A stretch of 28,528 nt of DNA from an uncultured bacterium (lineage in GTDB: Bacteria; Cyanobacteriota; Vampirovibrionia; Gastranaerophilales; Gastranaerophilaceae), in the NCBI GenBank assembly GCA_949286405.1, contig CASECH010000157.1, positions 1 to 28,528 on the forward strand, in the 5' to 3' direction. Under the pieces are notes generated by a model. It made no database searches. It was not told where the DNA came from and worked only from the letters and a program-made list of their open reading frames with translations. The translations under genes were made by a program, and so were the position numbers. Of the stretch, positions 2 through 17,047 are shown in pieces. Within the stretch, counting starts at the first letter, position 1, and every line of letters starts with the position of its first letter.

Positions 2-136
2 TCATCTACAGTTGATGCTCTATTAACTCGTGTAATGGGCGGAAACCAAGTTAAAATTATTTCTTGGTATGATAACGAAATGGGTTACTCAACTCGTTTA
101 GCTGAAACTACTTTGATGGTTGCTGAAAAATTATAA
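2..136 (+). CDS. gap: Glyceraldehyde-3-phosphate dehydrogenase, 3' end (5'-partial)
   Basis: Frame 2 reads SSTVDALLTRVMGGNQVKIISWYDNEMGYSTRLAETTLMVAEKL*. WYDNExGYS is the conserved GAPDH C-terminal motif. Not in the ORF track. Confidence 0.9.
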   Translation, partial: SSTVDALLTRVMGGNQVKIISWYDNEMGYSTRLAETTLMVAEKL

Positions 137-162
137 TTAATCTTTTGGATTAAATAGTTTTG

Positions 163-194
163 GATAGCCTCTTAATAAAGAGGCTATCTTTTTT
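163..194 (+). terminator. Rho-independent terminator after gap
   Basis: Perfect 10-bp stem GATAGCCTCT/AGAGGCTATC, 6-nt loop, followed by T6. Confidence 0.9.
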
Positions 195-261
195 ATTCTA
201 CTTTTGTCGAATTTATTTTTATTTGTAGTGCGGCACAATATATTTGATAGGAGGGAATATT

Positions 262-465
262 ATGCAAGCAGTAAAAATAATTACTTATATTTTGGTGTTA
301 GTTGGAGCCTTAAACTGGGGCTTGGTAGGCGGTTTTAATATTGATTTAGTCGCATTAATTTTTGGTGATATGACATTACTATCAAGAATAGTTTATATTC
401 TTGTTGGTTTGAGTGCTATCATTTATGCTATTGCATCTTATAGGGATGTATTTTATAGAGATTAG
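262..465 (+). CDS. DUF378-like small membrane protein
   Basis: LVLVGALNWGLVG...DLVALIFG...LSRIVYILVGLSA matches the DUF378 pattern. ATG at 262 follows AGGAGG (249-254), so it is preferred over the TTG at 244. Confidence 0.85.
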   Translation: MQAVKIITYILVLVGALNWGLVGGFNIDLVALIFGDMTLLSRIVYILVGLSAIIYAIASYRDVFYRD

Positions 466-3275
466 TTAATTAATTTTGAAAGATATTCTTTGTTAGCATC
501 CAAAGTATTTTTTGTTGCTAATATTGAATAGACAGGATGACCTGAGAAAATGTAGTTTGCGGCATTGAATATATCTTCTTGAGTTATGTTATCAATCATG
601 TCGAAATATTGGTTTTCTTTTGAAATTCCATATTGAGAGCATATTCCAGAGCCAAGAGATGATATCTTTCCGCTTATGCTTTCATTACTGCTTAGGATTT
701 CATTTTTAAGACTAAGTTTAGCATTTTCTAGTTCTTCTTTTGATACTTTGTTAGTTTTTAAGTCAGCTATGTGGCGTTTGAAGCCTTCTATGGATTTTTG
801 AACGTTGTCATAGCTGATTTCTCCGGTTTGATTATTTTCTGTTGTTGTTCCAATTTTGAGTTTTATTGTTCCGATATCATCTATACGAGAGTATTTGGAA
901 CGTACAGAGTATGCAAGTTTTTCTTGTTCTCTTAGGTTGTTGAATAATCTTGAAGATGGACCTCCTCCTAGAATTTTATTCAGAAGATCTAGGGTCACTG
1001 AATCTTTTAGATTACCATTTGTTTTGAATTTATAAGCCATAATTATATCGGCTTGGTTTTTAAAATCAGTATCTGTAAGGACTTTTGCTTTTTCGATTGG
1101 TTTATATGTATTAGGAATTTTAATTGGACTAAATTCTTTAAATTTAGGCATTGTATTTAATTCATAGAATAATATATTGTTAAGCTCCGGCTTTTTGTTC
1201 AGAGGTGCTGCGATTTCTACATCAACTTTTGAATTGTTCATAAGGTATGTATAAAGAGATTTGACTTCTTCTAATGTAATAGTTTTTAAATCTTCTAAAA
1301 TTTCTTCTTTTGAATAGTTGTATGGAAGATTTTTAAATAATTCATCATCTAATTTATCATTAGCTCTTTTTTCAGCTGTTTTAAGATTGTCTATAATTAA
1401 ATTTTTTACATAATCAAAAGACTCTTGCGTAAATCTAGGGCTGTACATGATTTCTTTTAAGGATTTTAGACCGATTGCAAGGTCTTCTGTCCCACAATTT
1501 AATGACAATGACATTGAGGCTTTTGTTGCATTCCCATCAAGTTTGATTCCTGATTTAGCCATGTCAAAATCGAATTGTTCTTGGGATTTGTTTGCAGTAC
1601 CTTCATTTAGCAAACCACTTAAAATTAATGTTGAAGAAGGACGAGCATTGGCATAGTCGTCACAGTTTAAATTTATATCAAGATATATGTTGTCAGTTTT
1701 TGTATTATTTGTAATTACTTGTATGTTATTTGGTAGTTTGTACATTTTTACATTGGAAAGATTTAGAGGTTGTTTTTTGTTCCCCATAAATGATATATGT
1801 TGAGCCTTTTCGTGATTTGTTTGGATATCTTTTTCACTAACTGCTTGTGGGTGGATAACTGTTAGTGCTGTTTTATTTAAATCCAGATATTTTTTTGCTG
1901 TATTTGAAATATCTTCTGGGGTAATTGAGTTTACTATATTTTCAAAATTGTTTATATAGTCAGTGTTGTTTTCAAGTAATGATGTGCCTATTATATTATT
2001 TATTGCAAAAGAGTATTCAAAAGATTTTCTAAAATTATCTATCATATTTTTTTTGACAATTTGTAATTCATCTTTTGTTGGTGGAATATTTGATATTTTA
2101 GTTATTTCATTGTATATTGCTTTGATTGCTTTTTCTGAATTCTCGTCAGAGCATTCTGCAGAAAGTAATATTGCTATTCCTTCTGATGGATTTGAGCTGA
2201 TTTTTTCATTGTCAATCCAAGCACTCGTGTTTAGAGGTTTTAGCACTTTATTAATTCGTGGAATTGATGGCAGTGTTAAAGTCTTTGCAAGTGCTTGTAT
2301 TAGTATTCTATCTTTTGCGTTATTACTTTGTGGACCATTAAATCCCATAATTATATTTGTAGCTGTTGCTTTATCAGAGATTATATCTTCCCTTTTAGTT
2401 GATTGGATTGGTTTTAATTCTTCGAAATGCCTGTTATTCGATGGAGTTTTTGGGGAAGTAAAGTATTTTGATATAAGTTTGATTGTTTCATCCGGGTTTA
2501 CTTCTCCAGATATCACTGTTACCATATTGGCTGGGTAGTAGTTATTATTGAAGTAGTTTACGACATCTTCTCTAGTTAAATTGGTTATATTATCGGTTGA
2601 ACCTCCAATTAAATCAGTAGAAGTTGATTTAATATTATACAAGTTTTTTATAGTTTTATTAACTGCAAGATTTTCAGGATCAGAAAGTATCATATTAATC
2701 TCTGAGTTTACAATACCTTTTTCTTTTTCGAGTTTTTCAACTGCAAATAAAGGGGTTTCAAGCATTGAAGCATGGAGTTTAATCTTATTTTCTAAATCAG
2801 TAGGGTTCAGCAGGTTTGAACTAATGTAGTAATTTGTTTCTGCAAAACCTGTACTAGCATTGGTTTCTGCCCCCATTTTATCTACTTCTTTGAAAAACTG
2901 ACCTTCTTCAAGTCCGTTTGAACCGTTAAATAAGTTATGTTCAATATAGTGACTTATACCTCTGAGTTTGTCTGGCTCATTCATTGAGCCTGTATTTACG
3001 TAAGTTCTAAGTACAGTTTCTCCTTCTTTTGGAACAATAACTACTTTTTGCCCATTTGCCAGTTTATAGCAGTGAGCTTTTATATCGTAAGGAAAACTAA
3101 TTTCACCTGTTTTGTTGTAGCTAAGAGGAACTTTTACAGAATAATCTTGTGTTGCAATAGGCAACATTGTTTTTTGTCCCGTTTCGGGGGTAGTTGTTTG
3201 GTTCTTTTGAATATTATTCGTTTGTTTATATTTGTTGATATTTTTTATGAAAATTGGATTAATATTATTAAGCAT
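462..3275 (-). CDS. M16 (pitrilysin/insulinase) family zinc metallopeptidase, two fused modules
   Basis: Inverted zincin motif HYIEH in GISHYIEHNLFNGS, then NASTG and EKEKGIVNSE. The second module (YKLPNN..., LGGGPSSRLFNNLREQEKLAYSV) lacks HxxEH. GGAG SD upstream. Confidence 0.9.
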   Translation of the reverse strand: MLNNINPIFIKNINKYKQTNNIQKNQTTTPETGQKTMLPIATQDYSVKVPLSYNKTGEISFPYDIKAHCYKLANGQKVVIVPKEGETVLRTYVNTGSMNEPDKLRGISHYIEHNLFNGSNGLEEGQFFKEVDKMGAETNASTGFAETNYYISSNLLNPTDLENKIKLHASMLETPLFAVEKLEKEKGIVNSEINMILSDPENLAVNKTIKNLYNIKSTSTDLIGGSTDNITNLTREDVVNYFNNNYYPANMVTVISGEVNPDETIKLISKYFTSPKTPSNNRHFEELKPIQSTKREDIISDKATATNIIMGFNGPQSNNAKDRILIQALAKTLTLPSIPRINKVLKPLNTSAWIDNEKISSNPSEGIAILLSAECSDENSEKAIKAIYNEITKISNIPPTKDELQIVKKNMIDNFRKSFEYSFAINNIIGTSLLENNTDYINNFENIVNSITPEDISNTAKKYLDLNKTALTVIHPQAVSEKDIQTNHEKAQHISFMGNKKQPLNLSNVKMYKLPNNIQVITNNTKTDNIYLDINLNCDDYANARPSSTLILSGLLNEGTANKSQEQFDFDMAKSGIKLDGNATKASMSLSLNCGTEDLAIGLKSLKEIMYSPRFTQESFDYVKNLIIDNLKTAEKRANDKLDDELFKNLPYNYSKEEILEDLKTITLEEVKSLYTYLMNNSKVDVEIAAPLNKKPELNNILFYELNTMPKFKEFSPIKIPNTYKPIEKAKVLTDTDFKNQADIIMAYKFKTNGNLKDSVTLDLLNKILGGGPSSRLFNNLREQEKLAYSVRSKYSRIDDIGTIKLKIGTTTENNQTGEISYDNVQKSIEGFKRHIADLKTNKVSKEELENAKLSLKNEILSSNESISGKISSLGSGICSQYGISKENQYFDMIDNITQEDIFNAANYIFSGHPVYSILATKNTLDANKEYLSKLIN

Positions 3276-9508: not shown

Positions 9509-11728
9509 ATGAAAATAAATTCAATACCCCAAGTTTTGTTAATTAACTCAAAGTTATCCTGTTTGGGGACTAAATATTCCGTGAATGAACAATCAGAGTA
9601 TAGAAATTCTAAATATTCATATAATCCTGTTGCTTATCGGGATTATGATGTCAATTTTATGGCCAGATTATTTAGAACTCCTGCGAATTTTTATGAGCAA
9701 GAGTTTAACAAAAACGGTATGCCAAAAACTATGAAAAATTATTTGGAAGCTGATTTTGAAGATAGGCAAAATATGCCTCCAGCACAAATGATGCGTCTTG
9801 TATTTGGTGATATAAATCTAAATGAGGTAAAATCTCTTGAACAAGTAAAAGCGATTTATCCAAATGAACCTTTATTCAATAATTTACGGGATGTGCCAAA
9901 TAGGAATTCAAGAACAGGTGTTATTGCTGAAATTGATTTAATGAGAGAAGATAATAAATCGTTATTTAAAAATGGACAAGATAATTTAGGACTATACCTT
10001 CTTAGGAAAATTTATTTGGAAGGTAAAACATTAAAAGAAATAAATAAAGATTTTCAAAAAGATATTTCAGTATACTATAAAGGATTAAGTCCTATTAAAT
10101 ATGTAACTTTGTCTGCTTATGGTATTAAATTCCCTAACAATGCTTTTTGGAAGTCTTTTACTGCTACAAGACAAGATTTCCCTTATGAATATAAACCTCG
10201 TAAAAGTTTTGTTTCTGAATCTGTTCTGCATAATCTTTCTCCAAAGAAACATAGTACAGAAATCCATAAAATAGATAAAAAGTTTGGCAAAGTTAAAGAT
10301 TGGGAAATTGATAAAATTGCTAATGCTATGATTTTAGGTATTGGTAGTGAAGAAGAGACAAGAAAACACATAAAAAAATACAATATACAAGATAAAGAGT
10401 CTTTAAATTTTGTTGCAAAATATATGAGTGAGATAAATTCTGTTGTATTGGAAAAAGTTCATGCTTCTGATGAAATGAAAGAATTTTACGAAAATTTTGA
10501 TAATTTATCGAATTCACAACGTAATATATTTAGAGCTTATTGGAATAGCAATCCACAAATTAAAGAAAATAGATCTTTGGTAATGAAAGATACAATAAAA
10601 CTATTTATGGATTTATATGGTGTAGATGGTAATAATGAAGAGTTTAAAGCTCTTTTAGATTATGCACATGGTATTAAGCCTGCCAGACTTGAACAGCAAA
10701 AAATACATGATCAAATTCAAGCGGAATATGATGAAATGTTTGCTAAATTAGGATTAGTTGATGACATTGATAATAACATTGATAATGAAATGTTAAAGGA
10801 AAATGAACTTAGTGAAATTAAATCACATAAGAAATTAGATCCGTATACCATCATTCCTGAAAAGCATGAAATTGTTTATAACGGTGATTTAGATTCTGAT
10901 TTCAGTAATCTTTTGAAAGAACAGATGAAATTTATTCCTGAGGCTTTTTCAATGAGATACTCAAAATATTTTTTAACAAGTCCGAGTGTTACTGATAAAT
11001 ATAAACTGTCTGCACTCATAGGAGCTGATTTACCCGAAGAATATAAAGATTTGGTGTATTCGGAAAAAGAATTTTATGATATTTCTTTGAATATTAATAG
11101 ATCTTTTACTTTAAAATATCCAAAGGTAATTGCTGCTTGTAATCAAGCTATGTTCGATTTACTTGCAGAAGTTGATCCTGAAAAGGCTTTTCATATTGAA
11201 ACACTCGATACCGATGTGTTAGCTAAGGCTATAAGTACTTCTTTGGGAGATGATTTATCTCCAAAACAGGCGAAAGAATTAAATAATGATTACTTGGCTT
11301 ATTTGAGACCAATAACTTCAAAAGAAGAAATCAATAAAATTAATGATATAATCACTGATTTTGTTGTTAATTCTGATTCAAATTTAATTTATGACAATCC
11401 GGAATTATCACCTTTAGTGAAATTGTTAAGAGCCAACATAAAAACTAATCCTAAATTGAGAAAAGATTTTGTTAAGTTACTTAAGTATTCAAATTTTATT
11501 GAAAATTATGGTGCTTCAGCTAGAGTATTATTAAAAAATGGAATAAGTGATGATGTTAAAAATGCAAAAATTGAGCTAATGATTGGTGATTTAATGTTAA
11601 TCGGATCAGAAGCTGCAATTGTTGATATTCTATCTGATAATTTATACAATCTTGAAACCATAATGAAACCTGCAAATAGTGAATTGTATTATTTGTTAAA
11701 ACAAAAATATTATAATAAAATAAGATAG
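9509..11728 (+). CDS. Hypothetical 739-aa protein, largely helical, possible DNA-binding elements
   Basis: Long ORF with its own terminator. No signal peptide or TM segment. No recognisable full domain. HTH-like KIYLEGKTLKEINKDF segment. Confidence 0.7.
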   Translation: MKINSIPQVLLINSKLSCLGTKYSVNEQSEYRNSKYSYNPVAYRDYDVNFMARLFRTPANFYEQEFNKNGMPKTMKNYLEADFEDRQNMPPAQMMRLVFGDINLNEVKSLEQVKAIYPNEPLFNNLRDVPNRNSRTGVIAEIDLMREDNKSLFKNGQDNLGLYLLRKIYLEGKTLKEINKDFQKDISVYYKGLSPIKYVTLSAYGIKFPNNAFWKSFTATRQDFPYEYKPRKSFVSESVLHNLSPKKHSTEIHKIDKKFGKVKDWEIDKIANAMILGIGSEEETRKHIKKYNIQDKESLNFVAKYMSEINSVVLEKVHASDEMKEFYENFDNLSNSQRNIFRAYWNSNPQIKENRSLVMKDTIKLFMDLYGVDGNNEEFKALLDYAHGIKPARLEQQKIHDQIQAEYDEMFAKLGLVDDIDNNIDNEMLKENELSEIKSHKKLDPYTIIPEKHEIVYNGDLDSDFSNLLKEQMKFIPEAFSMRYSKYFLTSPSVTDKYKLSALIGADLPEEYKDLVYSEKEFYDISLNINRSFTLKYPKVIAACNQAMFDLLAEVDPEKAFHIETLDTDVLAKAISTSLGDDLSPKQAKELNNDYLAYLRPITSKEEINKINDIITDFVVNSDSNLIYDNPELSPLVKLLRANIKTNPKLRKDFVKLLKYSNFIENYGASARVLLKNGISDDVKNAKIELMIGDLMLIGSEAAIVDILSDNLYNLETIMKPANSELYYLLKQKYYNKIR

Positions 11729-14078: not shown

Positions 14079-14108
14079 AAAAAAAGCCCTTTAGGGGGGG
14101 GCTTTTCT
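14079..14108 (-). terminator. Intrinsic terminator after the 14130 ORF
   Basis: Minus strand AAAAGCCC-loop-GGGCTTTT followed by further Ts. Confidence 0.75.
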
Positions 14109-14129: not shown

Positions 14130-14426
14130 TTAAAAATGCATATCAAATGAAGGAGGCATTCCATTTATTTTTTCATCTTCCATACGCATTGCAGAGCCTA
14201 TTGTGAAACTTTCTGCATAGATTTTATTGATTTGGAAGTTGATATCTCCGTTGAAGACATTTTCGTTTTCTTCAAGGAAATCAAACAGTGGTTCTGTTGG
14301 ACTTTTAATTATATTACCAAGTGTGTTACCGGCAAGTTTCATAGTATGCTCGCCGATTTCAGGCACTTTTACATTCATTCCGAATGGTTTGTATGGTCTG
14401 TTAAATGATGCACCTGTATCTGCCAT
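14130..14426 (-). CDS. Small hypothetical protein (about 98 aa)
   Basis: ORF MADTGASF...PPSFDMHF directly followed by a terminator. ATG 14426 chosen over 14459. No family recognised. Confidence 0.6.
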   Translation of the reverse strand: MADTGASFNRPYKPFGMNVKVPEIGEHTMKLAGNTLGNIIKSPTEPLFDFLEENENVFNGDINFQINKIYAESFTIGSAMRMEDEKINGMPPSFDMHF

Positions 14427-14528: not shown

Positions 14529-16031
14529 TTATTCTTTGGTATATTTCATTCCGGTTAATTTTATTTTTATTCCGGTTTGCTCAAAATAGTTTTTTGCCAT
14601 ATTTATTACTGAACTTGCAGATAACGAGCCTTCATTTACATCTTGTATTAAGGTTTTAAAATATTTTTTACCGGCTTCTTTACTGAATGGAAAGTTTACG
14701 TTTTTAATGTTTTTACTGCCATGCAAAAAGTTGCACCAACCATGTGCGAGTGCCCAATTGTCAATGTTATTAGTTCCTCTTTTTATTTTACTATTTTTAT
14801 CTAAGTTTTTATTTAGTTGTTTTATTTCTTTATCTGAAGTGTTTCTTAGTATTGGGGTTATGTGTTCCAATGTTACCAGAGAATCTTCAAGCATCTTGGT
14901 AATTATTGTATCAGTCGATTCATTTTGGTATTTTACAATAAATGCATCCATACTATCCAAGGATGTAGGAAATTTATTGATAATATTTTCAAATTTATTT
15001 ATTATTTTTTTATCTTGTACATTTTCAAGAATTTCATACAATTTATAGATGAATGCTTTATTACTGAATTGAACGAGGGCTGGTACGCCAAGGATTTTAT
15101 TTTTCGTCATATCGCACAATTTTACAATTGAAGGGTTATTATTATTTGTCGCAAGTTGTGAGATTTTATTTAATAAGATTATTTTTAATTTATCTTTTGC
15201 CTCATTGTCATAAGGCGATATGTAATTCCCTTTTTGTTTTGGATTAATTTTAGCTTGTTGATAAACCTTTTTTAGCCATTTTTCTGGAAGGTATGATTCA
15301 GCTTCTTTAAATATCGGGTGCGTTAATATTTGAGCTGTTTTTAAAATTTCTTCTTTTTCTTTTAGAGGTAAAGTTTTTGCAAGATTATTGAGTTGATAAT
15401 AAAATTCTTTAGCACTGTATTCACTTACATAGGGAATTTTTTTGATTCTATATATACTGTGATTGATTAAAATATCAAGGTCTTTGTGTAGTTCTAATGG
15501 TAGTTCTGACTTTAGATTTTTAATGTTATGTAATAAAAAGAATTGTTTATTAAGTAATCTTTTTTCTGCAGGGGGAGTCATTTTATTTAGTACATATTTT
15601 AAATTCGTATTAGGATATGCCTTACTGTAATTTTTAATTTGCTCAATTAACTTAACTCTTTCTGGAGGTAAATAATCTTTAAAATGAAGCATTACTCTTG
15701 AAAAAAGTTCACTATTAGATGCAAGGCGTCTGGAAATAGTTTTGAACATATCAAGTTCATTTTGCATGAACATTGATCCTCCGCACCATATGCAACATAG
15801 ATGTCCATTTTTGGCTAGTTGTTTAAATTCATTTTTATTTGTTATTATGTGAGAAAAATTTCCGTTGAAGTTTATATTATAATCCCCAATATTATTGGCA
15901 TATTGGGGTGAAAGATTTGATGGAGCAGAATATTTCAACATTCCCTTTGAGACTTTTTTTGAGTCAATTAATTCATTTTTATTTTTTATTACGAATGTTG
16001 TTGGTAAAATCCTCATATGATTAGAATACAT
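14529..16031 (-). CDS. Split-HNH endonuclease-like protein, paralog 1 (500 aa)
   Basis: CIWCG at aa 80-84, then TLEHITP (E389-H390)...GTNNIDNWALAHGWCNFLHGS. Homologous to the adjacent ORF. Start may be ATG 16016. Confidence 0.75.
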   Translation of the reverse strand: MYSNHMRILPTTFVIKNKNELIDSKKVSKGMLKYSAPSNLSPQYANNIGDYNINFNGNFSHIITNKNEFKQLAKNGHLCCIWCGGSMFMQNELDMFKTISRRLASNSELFSRVMLHFKDYLPPERVKLIEQIKNYSKAYPNTNLKYVLNKMTPPAEKRLLNKQFFLLHNIKNLKSELPLELHKDLDILINHSIYRIKKIPYVSEYSAKEFYYQLNNLAKTLPLKEKEEILKTAQILTHPIFKEAESYLPEKWLKKVYQQAKINPKQKGNYISPYDNEAKDKLKIILLNKISQLATNNNNPSIVKLCDMTKNKILGVPALVQFSNKAFIYKLYEILENVQDKKIINKFENIINKFPTSLDSMDAFIVKYQNESTDTIITKMLEDSLVTLEHITPILRNTSDKEIKQLNKNLDKNSKIKRGTNNIDNWALAHGWCNFLHGSKNIKNVNFPFSKEAGKKYFKTLIQDVNEGSLSASSVINMAKNYFEQTGIKIKLTGMKYTKE

Positions 16032-16072
16032 CTGATAAAATTTTTTTGTTAATATGTTAAAAATTTGTTACG

Positions 16073-17047
16073 TTATTCATCAAGTTTTGAAATATCTATG
16101 TCAATTTGTTTGTTGGAAAGCTGATATAGTATATTTTTGAGATTTTTTATGTATTCTTTACTTCCTATGTTTTTTCTGCATAGCGAAATTAATTTATCAG
16201 CTTGTAGTTGTGCATTAGCTGGCATATATGGATTTTCTTCTATTTGTACAGGTATAGGGAAATGATGTCGAGAATTGTTGCAGTATGAACATTCAAGTGC
16301 GAAGTTAAGAGAGTTATTTGGTCCTTTTTGGCTTTTTGGAAGTAGATGCTCAAATGTTCCAACTGCCGGATGAATAAGGTTTAGAGCGATAACTTCCGGT
16401 TTTTTTCGTGCATTTTTTACAACAAAAGCACAGACTTCATCACTTGAACGAGGGAGTCTGCGTGCAATTTCTATTATTTCGTGTTTTATTTTTTTGTTGT
16501 TTAAATTTTTCAGAATATGTTTTATTTTTGATATAAATATTCTTCTGCTGAAAGGTTTTTTTGGTTGTGGGTCAAATATTATATCATTTGTTTTTATCAT
16601 CAGGTTTCGGAGCTTTTTTGATTCTTTTTCCGGTAGAATTCTTCTGTAAAAGCTTATTTTATTAAATATTATGCTCTGAATTCTTACTAGTGCTAATTCA
16701 TGTACATCTTTTTTTAGAAGGAGTAGTTGTTGAAAATTTCTGTTAGGGTATTTTATGGACAGGTTTCTAAGCATATTAAATACTTGTCTTTCAACTGGGT
16801 ACATTATTTTTTCATATGGTTCAAGTATTTGGATAACAAGTTCGGATGGGCCTGATAGTTCTTTTAGGTGAATAAGTTTGAGGTATTCCTCTGGGTGTAG
16901 CATTTCTCGTCCACAGCACAGGCATGGAATGCGAAAATTAAGTAAATTTTTTAGTTCTCGTCGAGTAAGAGGAATATTCTCGCTTGAGCATTTGAATACT
17001 ATATTTTCTTTTTTTACAATCTTTTTCACCATAAAATCCCGCACCAA
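16073..17047 (-). CDS. Split-HNH endonuclease-like protein, paralog 2 (324 aa)
   Basis: CLCCG at aa 42-46, then TFEHLLPKSQKGPNNSLNFALECSYCNNSR (aa 231-260), a canonical HNH/McrA-type catalytic half. Likely start ATG 17032. Confidence 0.8.
   Translation of the reverse strand: MVRDFMVKKIVKKENIVFKCSSENIPLTRRELKNLLNFRIPCLCCGREMLHPEEYLKLIHLKELSGPSELVIQILEPYEKIMYPVERQVFNMLRNLSIKYPNRNFQQLLLLKKDVHELALVRIQSIIFNKISFYRRILPEKESKKLRNLMIKTNDIIFDPQPKKPFSRRIFISKIKHILKNLNNKKIKHEIIEIARRLPRSSDEVCAFVVKNARKKPEVIALNLIHPAVGTFEHLLPKSQKGPNNSLNFALECSYCNNSRHHFPIPVQIEENPYMPANAQLQADKLISLCRKNIGSKEYIKNLKNILYQLSNKQIDIDISKLDE

Follow-up and report, generated by a model that had tools for sequence, protein, structure and literature searches.

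A predicted split-HNH nuclease family of Gastranaerophilales with a conserved core gene and a replaceable downstream slot

The window analyzed here (the whole 28,528-nt stretch of contig CASECH010000157.1) derives from an uncultured bacterium of the order Gastranaerophilales (Melainabacteria/Vampirovibrionia), the genome of which has a GC content of ~30%. The feature under study (14529-17047) consists of two co-oriented genes on the minus strand, separated by a gap of 41 nt: SHORT (16073-17047) and LONG (14529-16031). The gene position behind SHORT is referred to as the slot. Both genes probably belong to a split-HNH nuclease family restricted to Gastranaerophilales, in which a core gene (SHORT) is followed by a replaceable slot gene, nuclease activity being predicted for both. 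The contrast between the conserved core gene and the replaceable downstream cassette is new in this analysis; a first-pass annotation, made from the sequence alone, had overlooked that SHORT and LONG differ strongly in their evolutionary behavior.

Split HNH motif, predicted fold, and metal site

The first-pass annotation described the two products as tandem paralogous HNH proteins with a nuclease motif split by a large helical insert, and this was largely supported by a partial Pfam match, a structural model, a match with Cas9 domains, and the pattern of metal ligands. Both open reading frames (ORFs) were found on the minus strand at the coordinates that had been given, with the motifs at the positions assigned to them: CIWCG at aa 80 and TLEH at aa 386-390 in LONG, and CLCCG at aa 42 and TFEH at aa 231-234 in SHORT. 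The distance between the knuckle and E-H was as large as claimed: the first CxxC lies 309 (LONG) and 191 (SHORT) residues upstream of E-H, and neither protein has a contiguous [CxxC]2 site. Canonical HNH with the [CxxC]2 zinc site forms one compact domain (PMC3592412).

The proposed paralogy was borne out by BLASTP between SHORT and LONG (E=2e-12), with a 69-residue ungapped block (322-390 of LONG and 166-234 of SHORT); the SEL and YPNxN motifs, noted as shared after the knuckle, formed a second block (E=1e-6), and Q...LP was also common to both. The SHORT and LONG families gave a coherent full-length joint alignment, the invariant columns of which included C42, C45, Q124, P139, E233, H234, N248, C256, and N257 (SHORT numbering); C42 and C45 of the knuckle were also invariant in the alignment of the SHORT family. 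LONG exceeded SHORT by a helical segment of ~125 aa and by a 21-aa loop within the HNH core. Since dozens of orthologs of both genes are under purifying selection, the observation is far beyond chance.

Full-length SHORT matched PF01844 with 20.3 bits over profile positions 15-46 only, leaving out the first CxxCG, and its C-terminal half alone matched the same positions with 26.2 bits. Several relatives scored 23-29 bits against PF01844; eight relatives matched HNH, the alignment starting at profile positions 13-15 in seven of them, and one relative matched HNH_4 (PF13395). Relative P0154, which has no 21-aa loop, bears precomputed HNH annotations, and neighboring clusters in the Atlas are annotated as HNH or HNH_4. 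When the knuckle of SHORT was joined in silico to its C-terminal half, the HNH match grew to profile positions 1-46 and the HNH_5 match spanned positions 1-43, increasing from 18.8 to 23.2 bits; a shuffled knuckle had no such effect. Neither RuvC nor any other Pfam domain was detected in SHORT or LONG.

The AlphaFold2 (AF2) model of LONG, built on a 145-sequence alignment, had a mean predicted local distance difference test score (pLDDT) of 89.9 and a predicted template modeling score of 0.82; residues 60-500 exceeded a pLDDT of 90, and residues 1-55 were disordered (<50). A beta-beta-alpha unit was present at the catalytic half of this confident model, with a pLDDT of >90 for both strands and the helix (Table 1). 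An exhaustive VIA-align search matched the model to three Cas9 HNH domains: 4oge_A (Z, 7.8; root mean square deviation, 3.5; 105 aligned residues; model 64..485 versus chain 549..664), 8d2k_A (Z, 7.7; 104 aligned residues; model 60..487), and 9k32_A (Z, 6.7). Because only ~105 residues of LONG, within a span from 60-64 to 485-487, were matched to Cas9 domains of 116-135 residues, the match uses both ends of the protein and skips the insert. Closure of the fold, by which both ends would build one Cas9-like HNH domain, is strongly supported. The insert of LONG gave generic four-helix-bundle matches only (Z, 6-9; aa 203-316, nested in aa 159-355). Foldseek with the whole SHORT and LONG models returned no match in the PDB; in the AFDB clusters, it recovered the family itself and nothing else, as unnamed 'HNH domain-containing' clusters. 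When PDB sequences were searched with a profile, no hit was significant; the best was the second knuckle of the MqsA zinc ribbon (E=0.13).

Metal ligands were surveyed in 134 sequences taken from the two window proteins and the 150 best cluster representatives. The N-terminal CC pair was accompanied by a distal [C/H]xxC in 53 of 134 sequences and by CxxD in 16, and none of the 63 sequences without the N-terminal CC pair had a distal [C/H]xxC. These all-or-none columns support the proposal that one four-ligand metal site would be formed from both halves; the co-variation of the two distant pairs, suggestive and statistically unproven, would fit a single structural zinc site. Zinc-less members carry a D-P-Y-S-G knuckle, which we take to resemble the C/Y-x-x-x-G turn of Cas9. 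The catalytic residues were kept throughout: His (H390 in LONG and H234 in SHORT) in 143 of 146 relatives, the preceding E/D (E389 and E233) in 144 of 146, the structural Asn (N425 and N248) in 142 of 144, and the helix Asn (N434 and N257) in 144 of 145. Conservation was thus ~98% for His and both Asn, all zinc-less members included. The retention of His and both Asn even in zinc-less members argues for a working active site, and the proteins are most likely metal-dependent nucleases, with DNA as the predicted substrate.

By catalytic motif and predicted fold, both proteins are members of the HNH superfamily that depart from its compact, contiguous architecture. They share with canonical zinc HNH (PF01844 and HNH_5 (PF14279); McrA-type and phage enzymes) the D/E-H...N...N/H residues on a beta-beta-alpha unit, the CxxCG first knuckle, and CxxC-N on a helix, the four-ligand site being a prediction here. 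On the other hand, the first knuckle, ~15 residues before His in the Pfam profile, is separated from it by 191 to ~575 residues in this family. Further differences from canonical zinc HNH are the helical bundles filling the hairpin loop, a fourth ligand that may also be His or Asp, the loss of all four ligands in about half of the relatives, and full-length scores at or below the Pfam cut-off. The usual spacing, with the structural Asn ~14 residues after His and the metal Asn ~9 further, was found in SHORT (N248/N257), whose H-14-N-9-N pattern presumably equals that of SpCas9 (H840/N854/N863); LONG (N425/N434) has the 21-aa loop.

No structure matched the reassembled domain better than the Cas9 HNH domains (type II-C: 4oge, 8d2k, and 9k32; Z, 6.7-7.8), and the HNH_4 match of one relative is a likeness to Cas9/IscB in sequence. 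Unlike these systems, SHORT and LONG have no RuvC domain, guide RNA, CRISPR array, or bridge helix, and whereas HNH itself is inserted in RuvC in Cas9, it is here the HNH domain that contains inserted helical domains. The IscB model NF040563 gave 16.6 bits against a cut-off of 175.

The insert comprises ~145 aa in SHORT and ~260 aa in LONG, and the spacing between the knuckle and E-H ranges from 190 to ~575 residues across the family. Its description as Lys-rich was correct (K, 13.4% in LONG and 11.4% in SHORT versus 8.9% genome-wide); the net charges of the whole proteins are +29 and +24, respectively, with a pI of ~9.6-9.7, and the inserts are themselves basic (Table 1). Basic and modular as it is, the insert may be a specificity or partner-binding module, as had been suggested. 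Relatives of ~760 aa (P0211, P0238, P0270, and P0291) possess one knuckle near aa 75 and one E-H near aa 650, with helical modules repeated two to three times in between, and those of 823 aa (P0269/P0303) are head-to-tail fusions of two complete zinc-less units that are 31% identical to each other.

The nearest conventional relatives are compact HNH proteins from other families of the order, which match the profile over the catalytic half (E, 1e-13 to 1e-18) and have the same order of elements: x-F-G strand, knuckle, E-H, N, and N. They also occur in tandem: at locus L068, from another family of the order, two such genes (1372-1926 and 2523-3188, plus strand) encode proteins of 184 and 221 aa. 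Unlike the split family, their H-C-A-Y-G-G knuckle lies only ~10 residues before A-E-H and there is no helical insert. These proteins may resemble the family before insertion, in which case the split form would have originated when the hairpin loop received an insert; an hhalign comparison between the family profile and a compact relative covered the catalytic half only, at a probability of 5%, and does not document the insertion point. To our knowledge, a multi-domain insertion nested in the hairpin has not been described for any HNH; neither such a case nor a paper on the split-HNH family was found in the open-access literature.

Conserved core gene and variable slot

SHORT was 67-94% identical across 50 Gastranaerophilales species, was uninterrupted in 49 of the 50 loci (with one apparent frameshift), and had a ratio of nonsynonymous to synonymous substitution rates (dN/dS, omega) of 0.02-0.10. 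For slot orthologs, omega was 0.08-0.17 and dN was 3-10 times that of SHORT. These 50 closest loci were all from metagenome-assembled genomes, mostly carrying the label Candidatus Gastranaerophilales or Melainabacteria; the others were listed as uncultured Clostridium, 'Clostridium sp. CAG', or uncultured bacterium.

The slot was filled by LONG orthologs in ~20 of the 50 loci and by other paralogs of 336-516 aa elsewhere. Two family genes occupied it in four loci (L002, L008, L011, and L012), the slot gene was broken in two (L015 and L038), and in L044 the slot was empty, a small ORF being located directly behind SHORT. In several pairs of loci in which SHORT was 93-97% identical, the slot proteins were only 26-39% identical. 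Between the window and L001, the flanks showed 91-92% nucleotide identity, and L001 has, in place of LONG from roughly its start through its 3' end, a gene for a 457-aa paralog (35-39% identity to LONG) without the 21-aa loop and with a CCCC site. This pattern is typical of genetic-conflict genes or selfish cassettes and does not itself indicate which of the two is concerned.

Family range, neighboring genes, and feature coordinates

A profile search over 1.84 billion cluster representatives yielded 790 clusters (50% identity) at E<=1e-3 and 161 at E<=1e-30. Most clusters were of 440-500 aa, and the long form is therefore the typical architecture of the family, a point that the earlier reading had missed. 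The family was present in 168 of 169 genomes (and in the present genome) and in 2 of 2 genomes of two Gastranaerophilales families, and one further family of the order carries it (genome G412), making three families of one order with ~2-5 copies per genome; most genomes outside a few genera had long-type genes only. Four further families of the order gave compact HNH matches only, and neither 5 genomes from another family of the class nor 225 other genomes of the phylum yielded a member. No relatives turned up among the phage and plasmid records and the IMG/VR contigs that were searched. Wherever a member has a name, it is a 'hypothetical protein' from Melainabacteria. The suggestion of an uncharacterized, lineage-specific family was supported within the genomes searched, and the order-restricted set is a large unannotated protein family of gut Melainabacteria. 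Other paralogs are located among housekeeping genes (after secDF and near murT/pdxJ). A third member in the present genome has 481 aa (L054, 1249-2694, minus strand; contig C96) and combines the CAICG knuckle and SFEH...N...HMICN with a long coiled coil at its C-terminus; its gene adjoins that of a 233-aa Cys-rich protein of unknown function.

The order of genes in most of the 50 loci was yebC, GGDEF, tsaE, tsaB, SHORT, slot, 98-aa ORF, and pnp; the pnp end was swapped for other genes in several loci. As had been concluded, there is no restriction-modification, CRISPR, or IscB setting: the neighbors are tsaB, tsaE, the GGDEF gene, yebC, and pnp, and no methyltransferase is nearby. The window gave no Rfam match and no repeat array, the intergenic gaps measure 41-90 nt, and PADLOC models produced no match at E up to 1.

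The 98-aa ORF (MADTGASFNRPYKPFG...; 14130-14426, minus strand) directly downstream of the slot has no Pfam family. Its identity was 77-93% across 46 of these 50 loci, whatever filled the slot or without an occupant, and it does not vary with the slot gene as a cognate immunity gene would with its toxin. Judged by sequence and gene context, the two genes are not Cas9/IscB, a recognized defense system, or a toxin-immunity pair. The 98-aa ORF was also considered as a retropepsin-like protease trimming the leader, based on an Atlas RVP match (0.93, below the recognition mark) and DTG at residues 3-5; this was ruled out because there was no Pfam match, DTG is at the extreme N-terminus, and orthologs read ETG, DAN, EAG, and DNG. 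A G+C-rich hairpin with flanking A/T runs (14082-14106) follows this ORF and could be the terminator of a tsaB-SHORT-LONG-small ORF transcript. Elsewhere in the window, a 739-aa ORF (9509-11728, plus strand) without a Pfam match was 52-59% identical in some related loci and absent there in others.

Coordinates are summarized in Table 1. Since relatives use an internal Met as the start, the true starts of LONG and SHORT are likely at 16016 and 17032, respectively; P0121 is the 495-aa form of LONG.

Table 1. Features of the SHORT and LONG genes in the window
Feature	Position	Strand	Description
SHORT paralog	16073..17047	-	324-aa ORF; probable ATG 17032 (MVKK...), giving 319 aa; conserved core member
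SHORT N-terminal zinc knuckle CLCCG (C42, C45; aa 42-46)	16910..16924	-	Putative equivalent of the canonical HNH first CxxCG
SHORT helical insert, aa 60-205	16433..16870	-	Net charge +15; AF2 pLDDT >90 over aa 60-230, all helices
SHORT catalytic half, VGTFEH...N248...C253xxC256-N257...H262	16262..16363	-	Pfam PF01844, profile positions 15-46
LONG paralog	14529..16031	-	500-aa ORF; probable ATG 16016 (MRILP...), giving 495 aa; variable-slot occupant
LONG disordered polar N-terminal leader	15867..16016	-	Conserved from the MRILP start to the near-invariant F55
LONG zinc knuckle CIWCG (C80, C83; aa 80-84)	15780..15794	-	Invariant in the LONG-relative alignment; co-varies with the distal pair
LONG helical insert, aa 101-360	14952..15731	-	Net charge +18; four-helix bundle aa ~203-316 apparently nested in bundle aa ~159-355
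LONG catalytic half	14718..14879	-	Beta 385-390 (VTLEH), 21-aa loop, beta 426-430, helix 431-437 (H430xxC433-N434)

A leader similar to that of LONG, M-K/R/N-I/V-x-x-I/V...(N/S/T/Q-rich)...x-F-x-G/A, was found by a loose, statistically uncalibrated pattern search at 9509-9670 (plus strand), in addition to 15867-16016 (minus strand), and on contigs C36, C96, C98, C165, C175, and C213 (L057-L061). The proteins sharing it include an AAA ATPase, a glycosyltransferase-like protein of 981 aa, and the product of the 739-aa ORF, and the pattern could be a lineage-specific sorting or docking signal. A 21-bp unit repeated twice (85% match; 14970-15010) inside the LONG coding sequence is probably trivial in A+T-rich DNA.

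Proposed mechanism and alternative explanations

In the mechanism that we propose, the HNH domain is pulled apart: its first strand and CxxCG knuckle would be N-terminal, E-H...N...[C/H]xxC-N would follow 190 to ~575 residues downstream, and one or more basic helical bundles would be inserted in the hairpin loop between the strands. A structural zinc would staple the N-terminal strand to the catalytic helix. In a one-metal His-Me mechanism, H234/H390 would act as the general base, E233/E389 and N257/N434 would hold Mg2+ or Mn2+, and N248/N425 would brace the hairpin. The basic insert may provide a substrate-binding surface, which probably holds and selects nucleic acid, most likely DNA. SHORT, which is inherited vertically as a core gene and strongly constrained by purifying selection, would be a housekeeping-like enzyme of the lineage, and the slot enzymes would be accessory relatives that differ in specificity and take part in genetic conflict or DNA turnover. 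A role of SHORT as a substitute for a missing Holliday-junction resolvase was rejected: RuvC was present in 21 of 21 relatives searched, including this genome, and RecU was not found in the relatives searched for resolvases.

Several points weigh against a pair of active split-HNH nucleases with a core and a conflict-driven slot. The full-length score of SHORT is below the PF01844 gathering cut-off (21.4 bits), the gain for this profile from joining the halves was small (0.7 bits), and full-length LONG had no significant Pfam HNH match, plausibly because of the 21-aa loop in its core. In the SHORT model (23 sequences), the helices were confident and the HNH half was poor (pLDDT, 38-48). The Cas9 matches, at Z<8, fall where chance arrangements can occur, and only the first and last aligned residues were reported. 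On a FastTree phylogeny, ligand co-variation amounted to 7-8 changes, and the supported branches held just 2 pairs that were independent (sign test, p=0.5). Furthermore, the conflict role of the slot was derived from evolutionary behavior only, and the neighborhood gives no pointer to a substrate or pathway. The HNH core may also have been retained as a fold only, in non-catalytic nucleic acid-binding or structural proteins, and the weak Pfam scores and the loss of zinc ligands in many members speak for this; it is nevertheless very improbable because conservation of the general-base His and both Asn in ~98% of 150 diverse relatives, zinc-less ones included, is hard to explain if the proteins do not catalyze.

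Other explanations accept a nuclease and assign it to a different biological setting. Methyltransferase-free defense nucleases (type IV restriction-like, anti-phage, or anti-plasmid), with an insert that reads foreign or modified DNA and a slot shaped by an arms race, would account for the fast evolution of the slot, in which the cassette is replaced, duplicated, broken, or lost among close relatives, as well as for 2-5 family genes per genome, the very basic proteins, and the lack of a nearby methyltransferase. We consider this unlikely, since there was no PADLOC match, the paralogs lie among housekeeping genes outside defense islands and mobile elements, no relatives were present on the phages, plasmids, and viral contigs searched, and a strictly conserved core gene such as SHORT is unusual among defense genes. 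HNH is also the classic homing-endonuclease fold, and the slot gene may be a free-standing, homing-endonuclease-like selfish cassette that cycles through invasion, decay, and loss, SHORT being a domesticated copy. At a single, fixed intergenic site between conserved flanks, a slot gene may be present, absent, decayed to a pseudogene, or replaced, and this sporadic occupancy resembles such elements; however, the purifying selection on slot orthologs, the different and stable core-genome sites of the other paralogs, the absence of an intron, intein, or phage context, the restriction to three families of one order, and an architecture unlike that of known homing HNH enzymes (compact HNH with DNA-binding modules) leave it a small probability.

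The first-pass annotation had also raised the possibility of a heterodimer. An obligate SHORT-LONG heterodimer with two active sites making double-strand breaks would agree with the close, co-oriented arrangement of the genes, and the natural 823-aa protein joining two complete units indicates that two units can work together. These fused units are, however, closer to each other than to SHORT or LONG, pointing to an independent duplication that counts against a heterodimer; moreover, SHORT occurs without a partner in at least one genome (L044), in close relatives with SHORT 93-97% identical, the neighboring gene is either broken or encodes a paralog of 26-39% identity, and most genomes outside a few genera have long-type genes only. 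The differing neighbors in close relatives argue against an obligate, co-evolved pair, and we regard it as quite doubtful. It is similarly difficult to view the proteins as exported nuclease toxins or effectors, the disordered leader (M-K/R-I-x-x-V/I ... x-F-x-G) of which would be a lineage-specific export or sorting signal. Although both ends of this leader are conserved in spite of its disorder (F55 in 139 of 140 relatives) and ~ten other, unrelated proteins encoded in this genome start with one like it, the AAA ATPase and glycosyltransferase-like protein among them are typically cytoplasmic, there is no variable cognate immunity gene (the small ORF downstream is conserved regardless of the slot), and the x-F-G strand ~25 aa before the knuckle in compact HNH relatives suggests that the motif may belong to the domain. 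Export is accordingly judged decidedly improbable.

The reading as a split-HNH family with a core enzyme and a variable slot bears on both the fold and the organism. HNH is a widespread nuclease fold and the cutting module of Cas9/IscB, normally compact at 40-60 residues; here it would tolerate a nested insert within the hairpin with its catalytic residues kept, which bears on engineering, for example, by insertion at the same point in the HNH domain of Cas9/IscB. A speculative extension, to which we give little probability, is that the inserted helical modules are exchangeable, repeatable recognition units and that SHORT and the slot form a core-plus-variable arrangement for self/non-self DNA discrimination, an undescribed logic; if true, this would be a defense or homing logic in gut Melainabacteria, with modules occurring as a single, double, or triple set and slot replacement exchanging the complete gene. 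The frozen core copy beside a hypervariable slot suggests an undescribed conflict or DNA-maintenance function in this experimentally little-known group.

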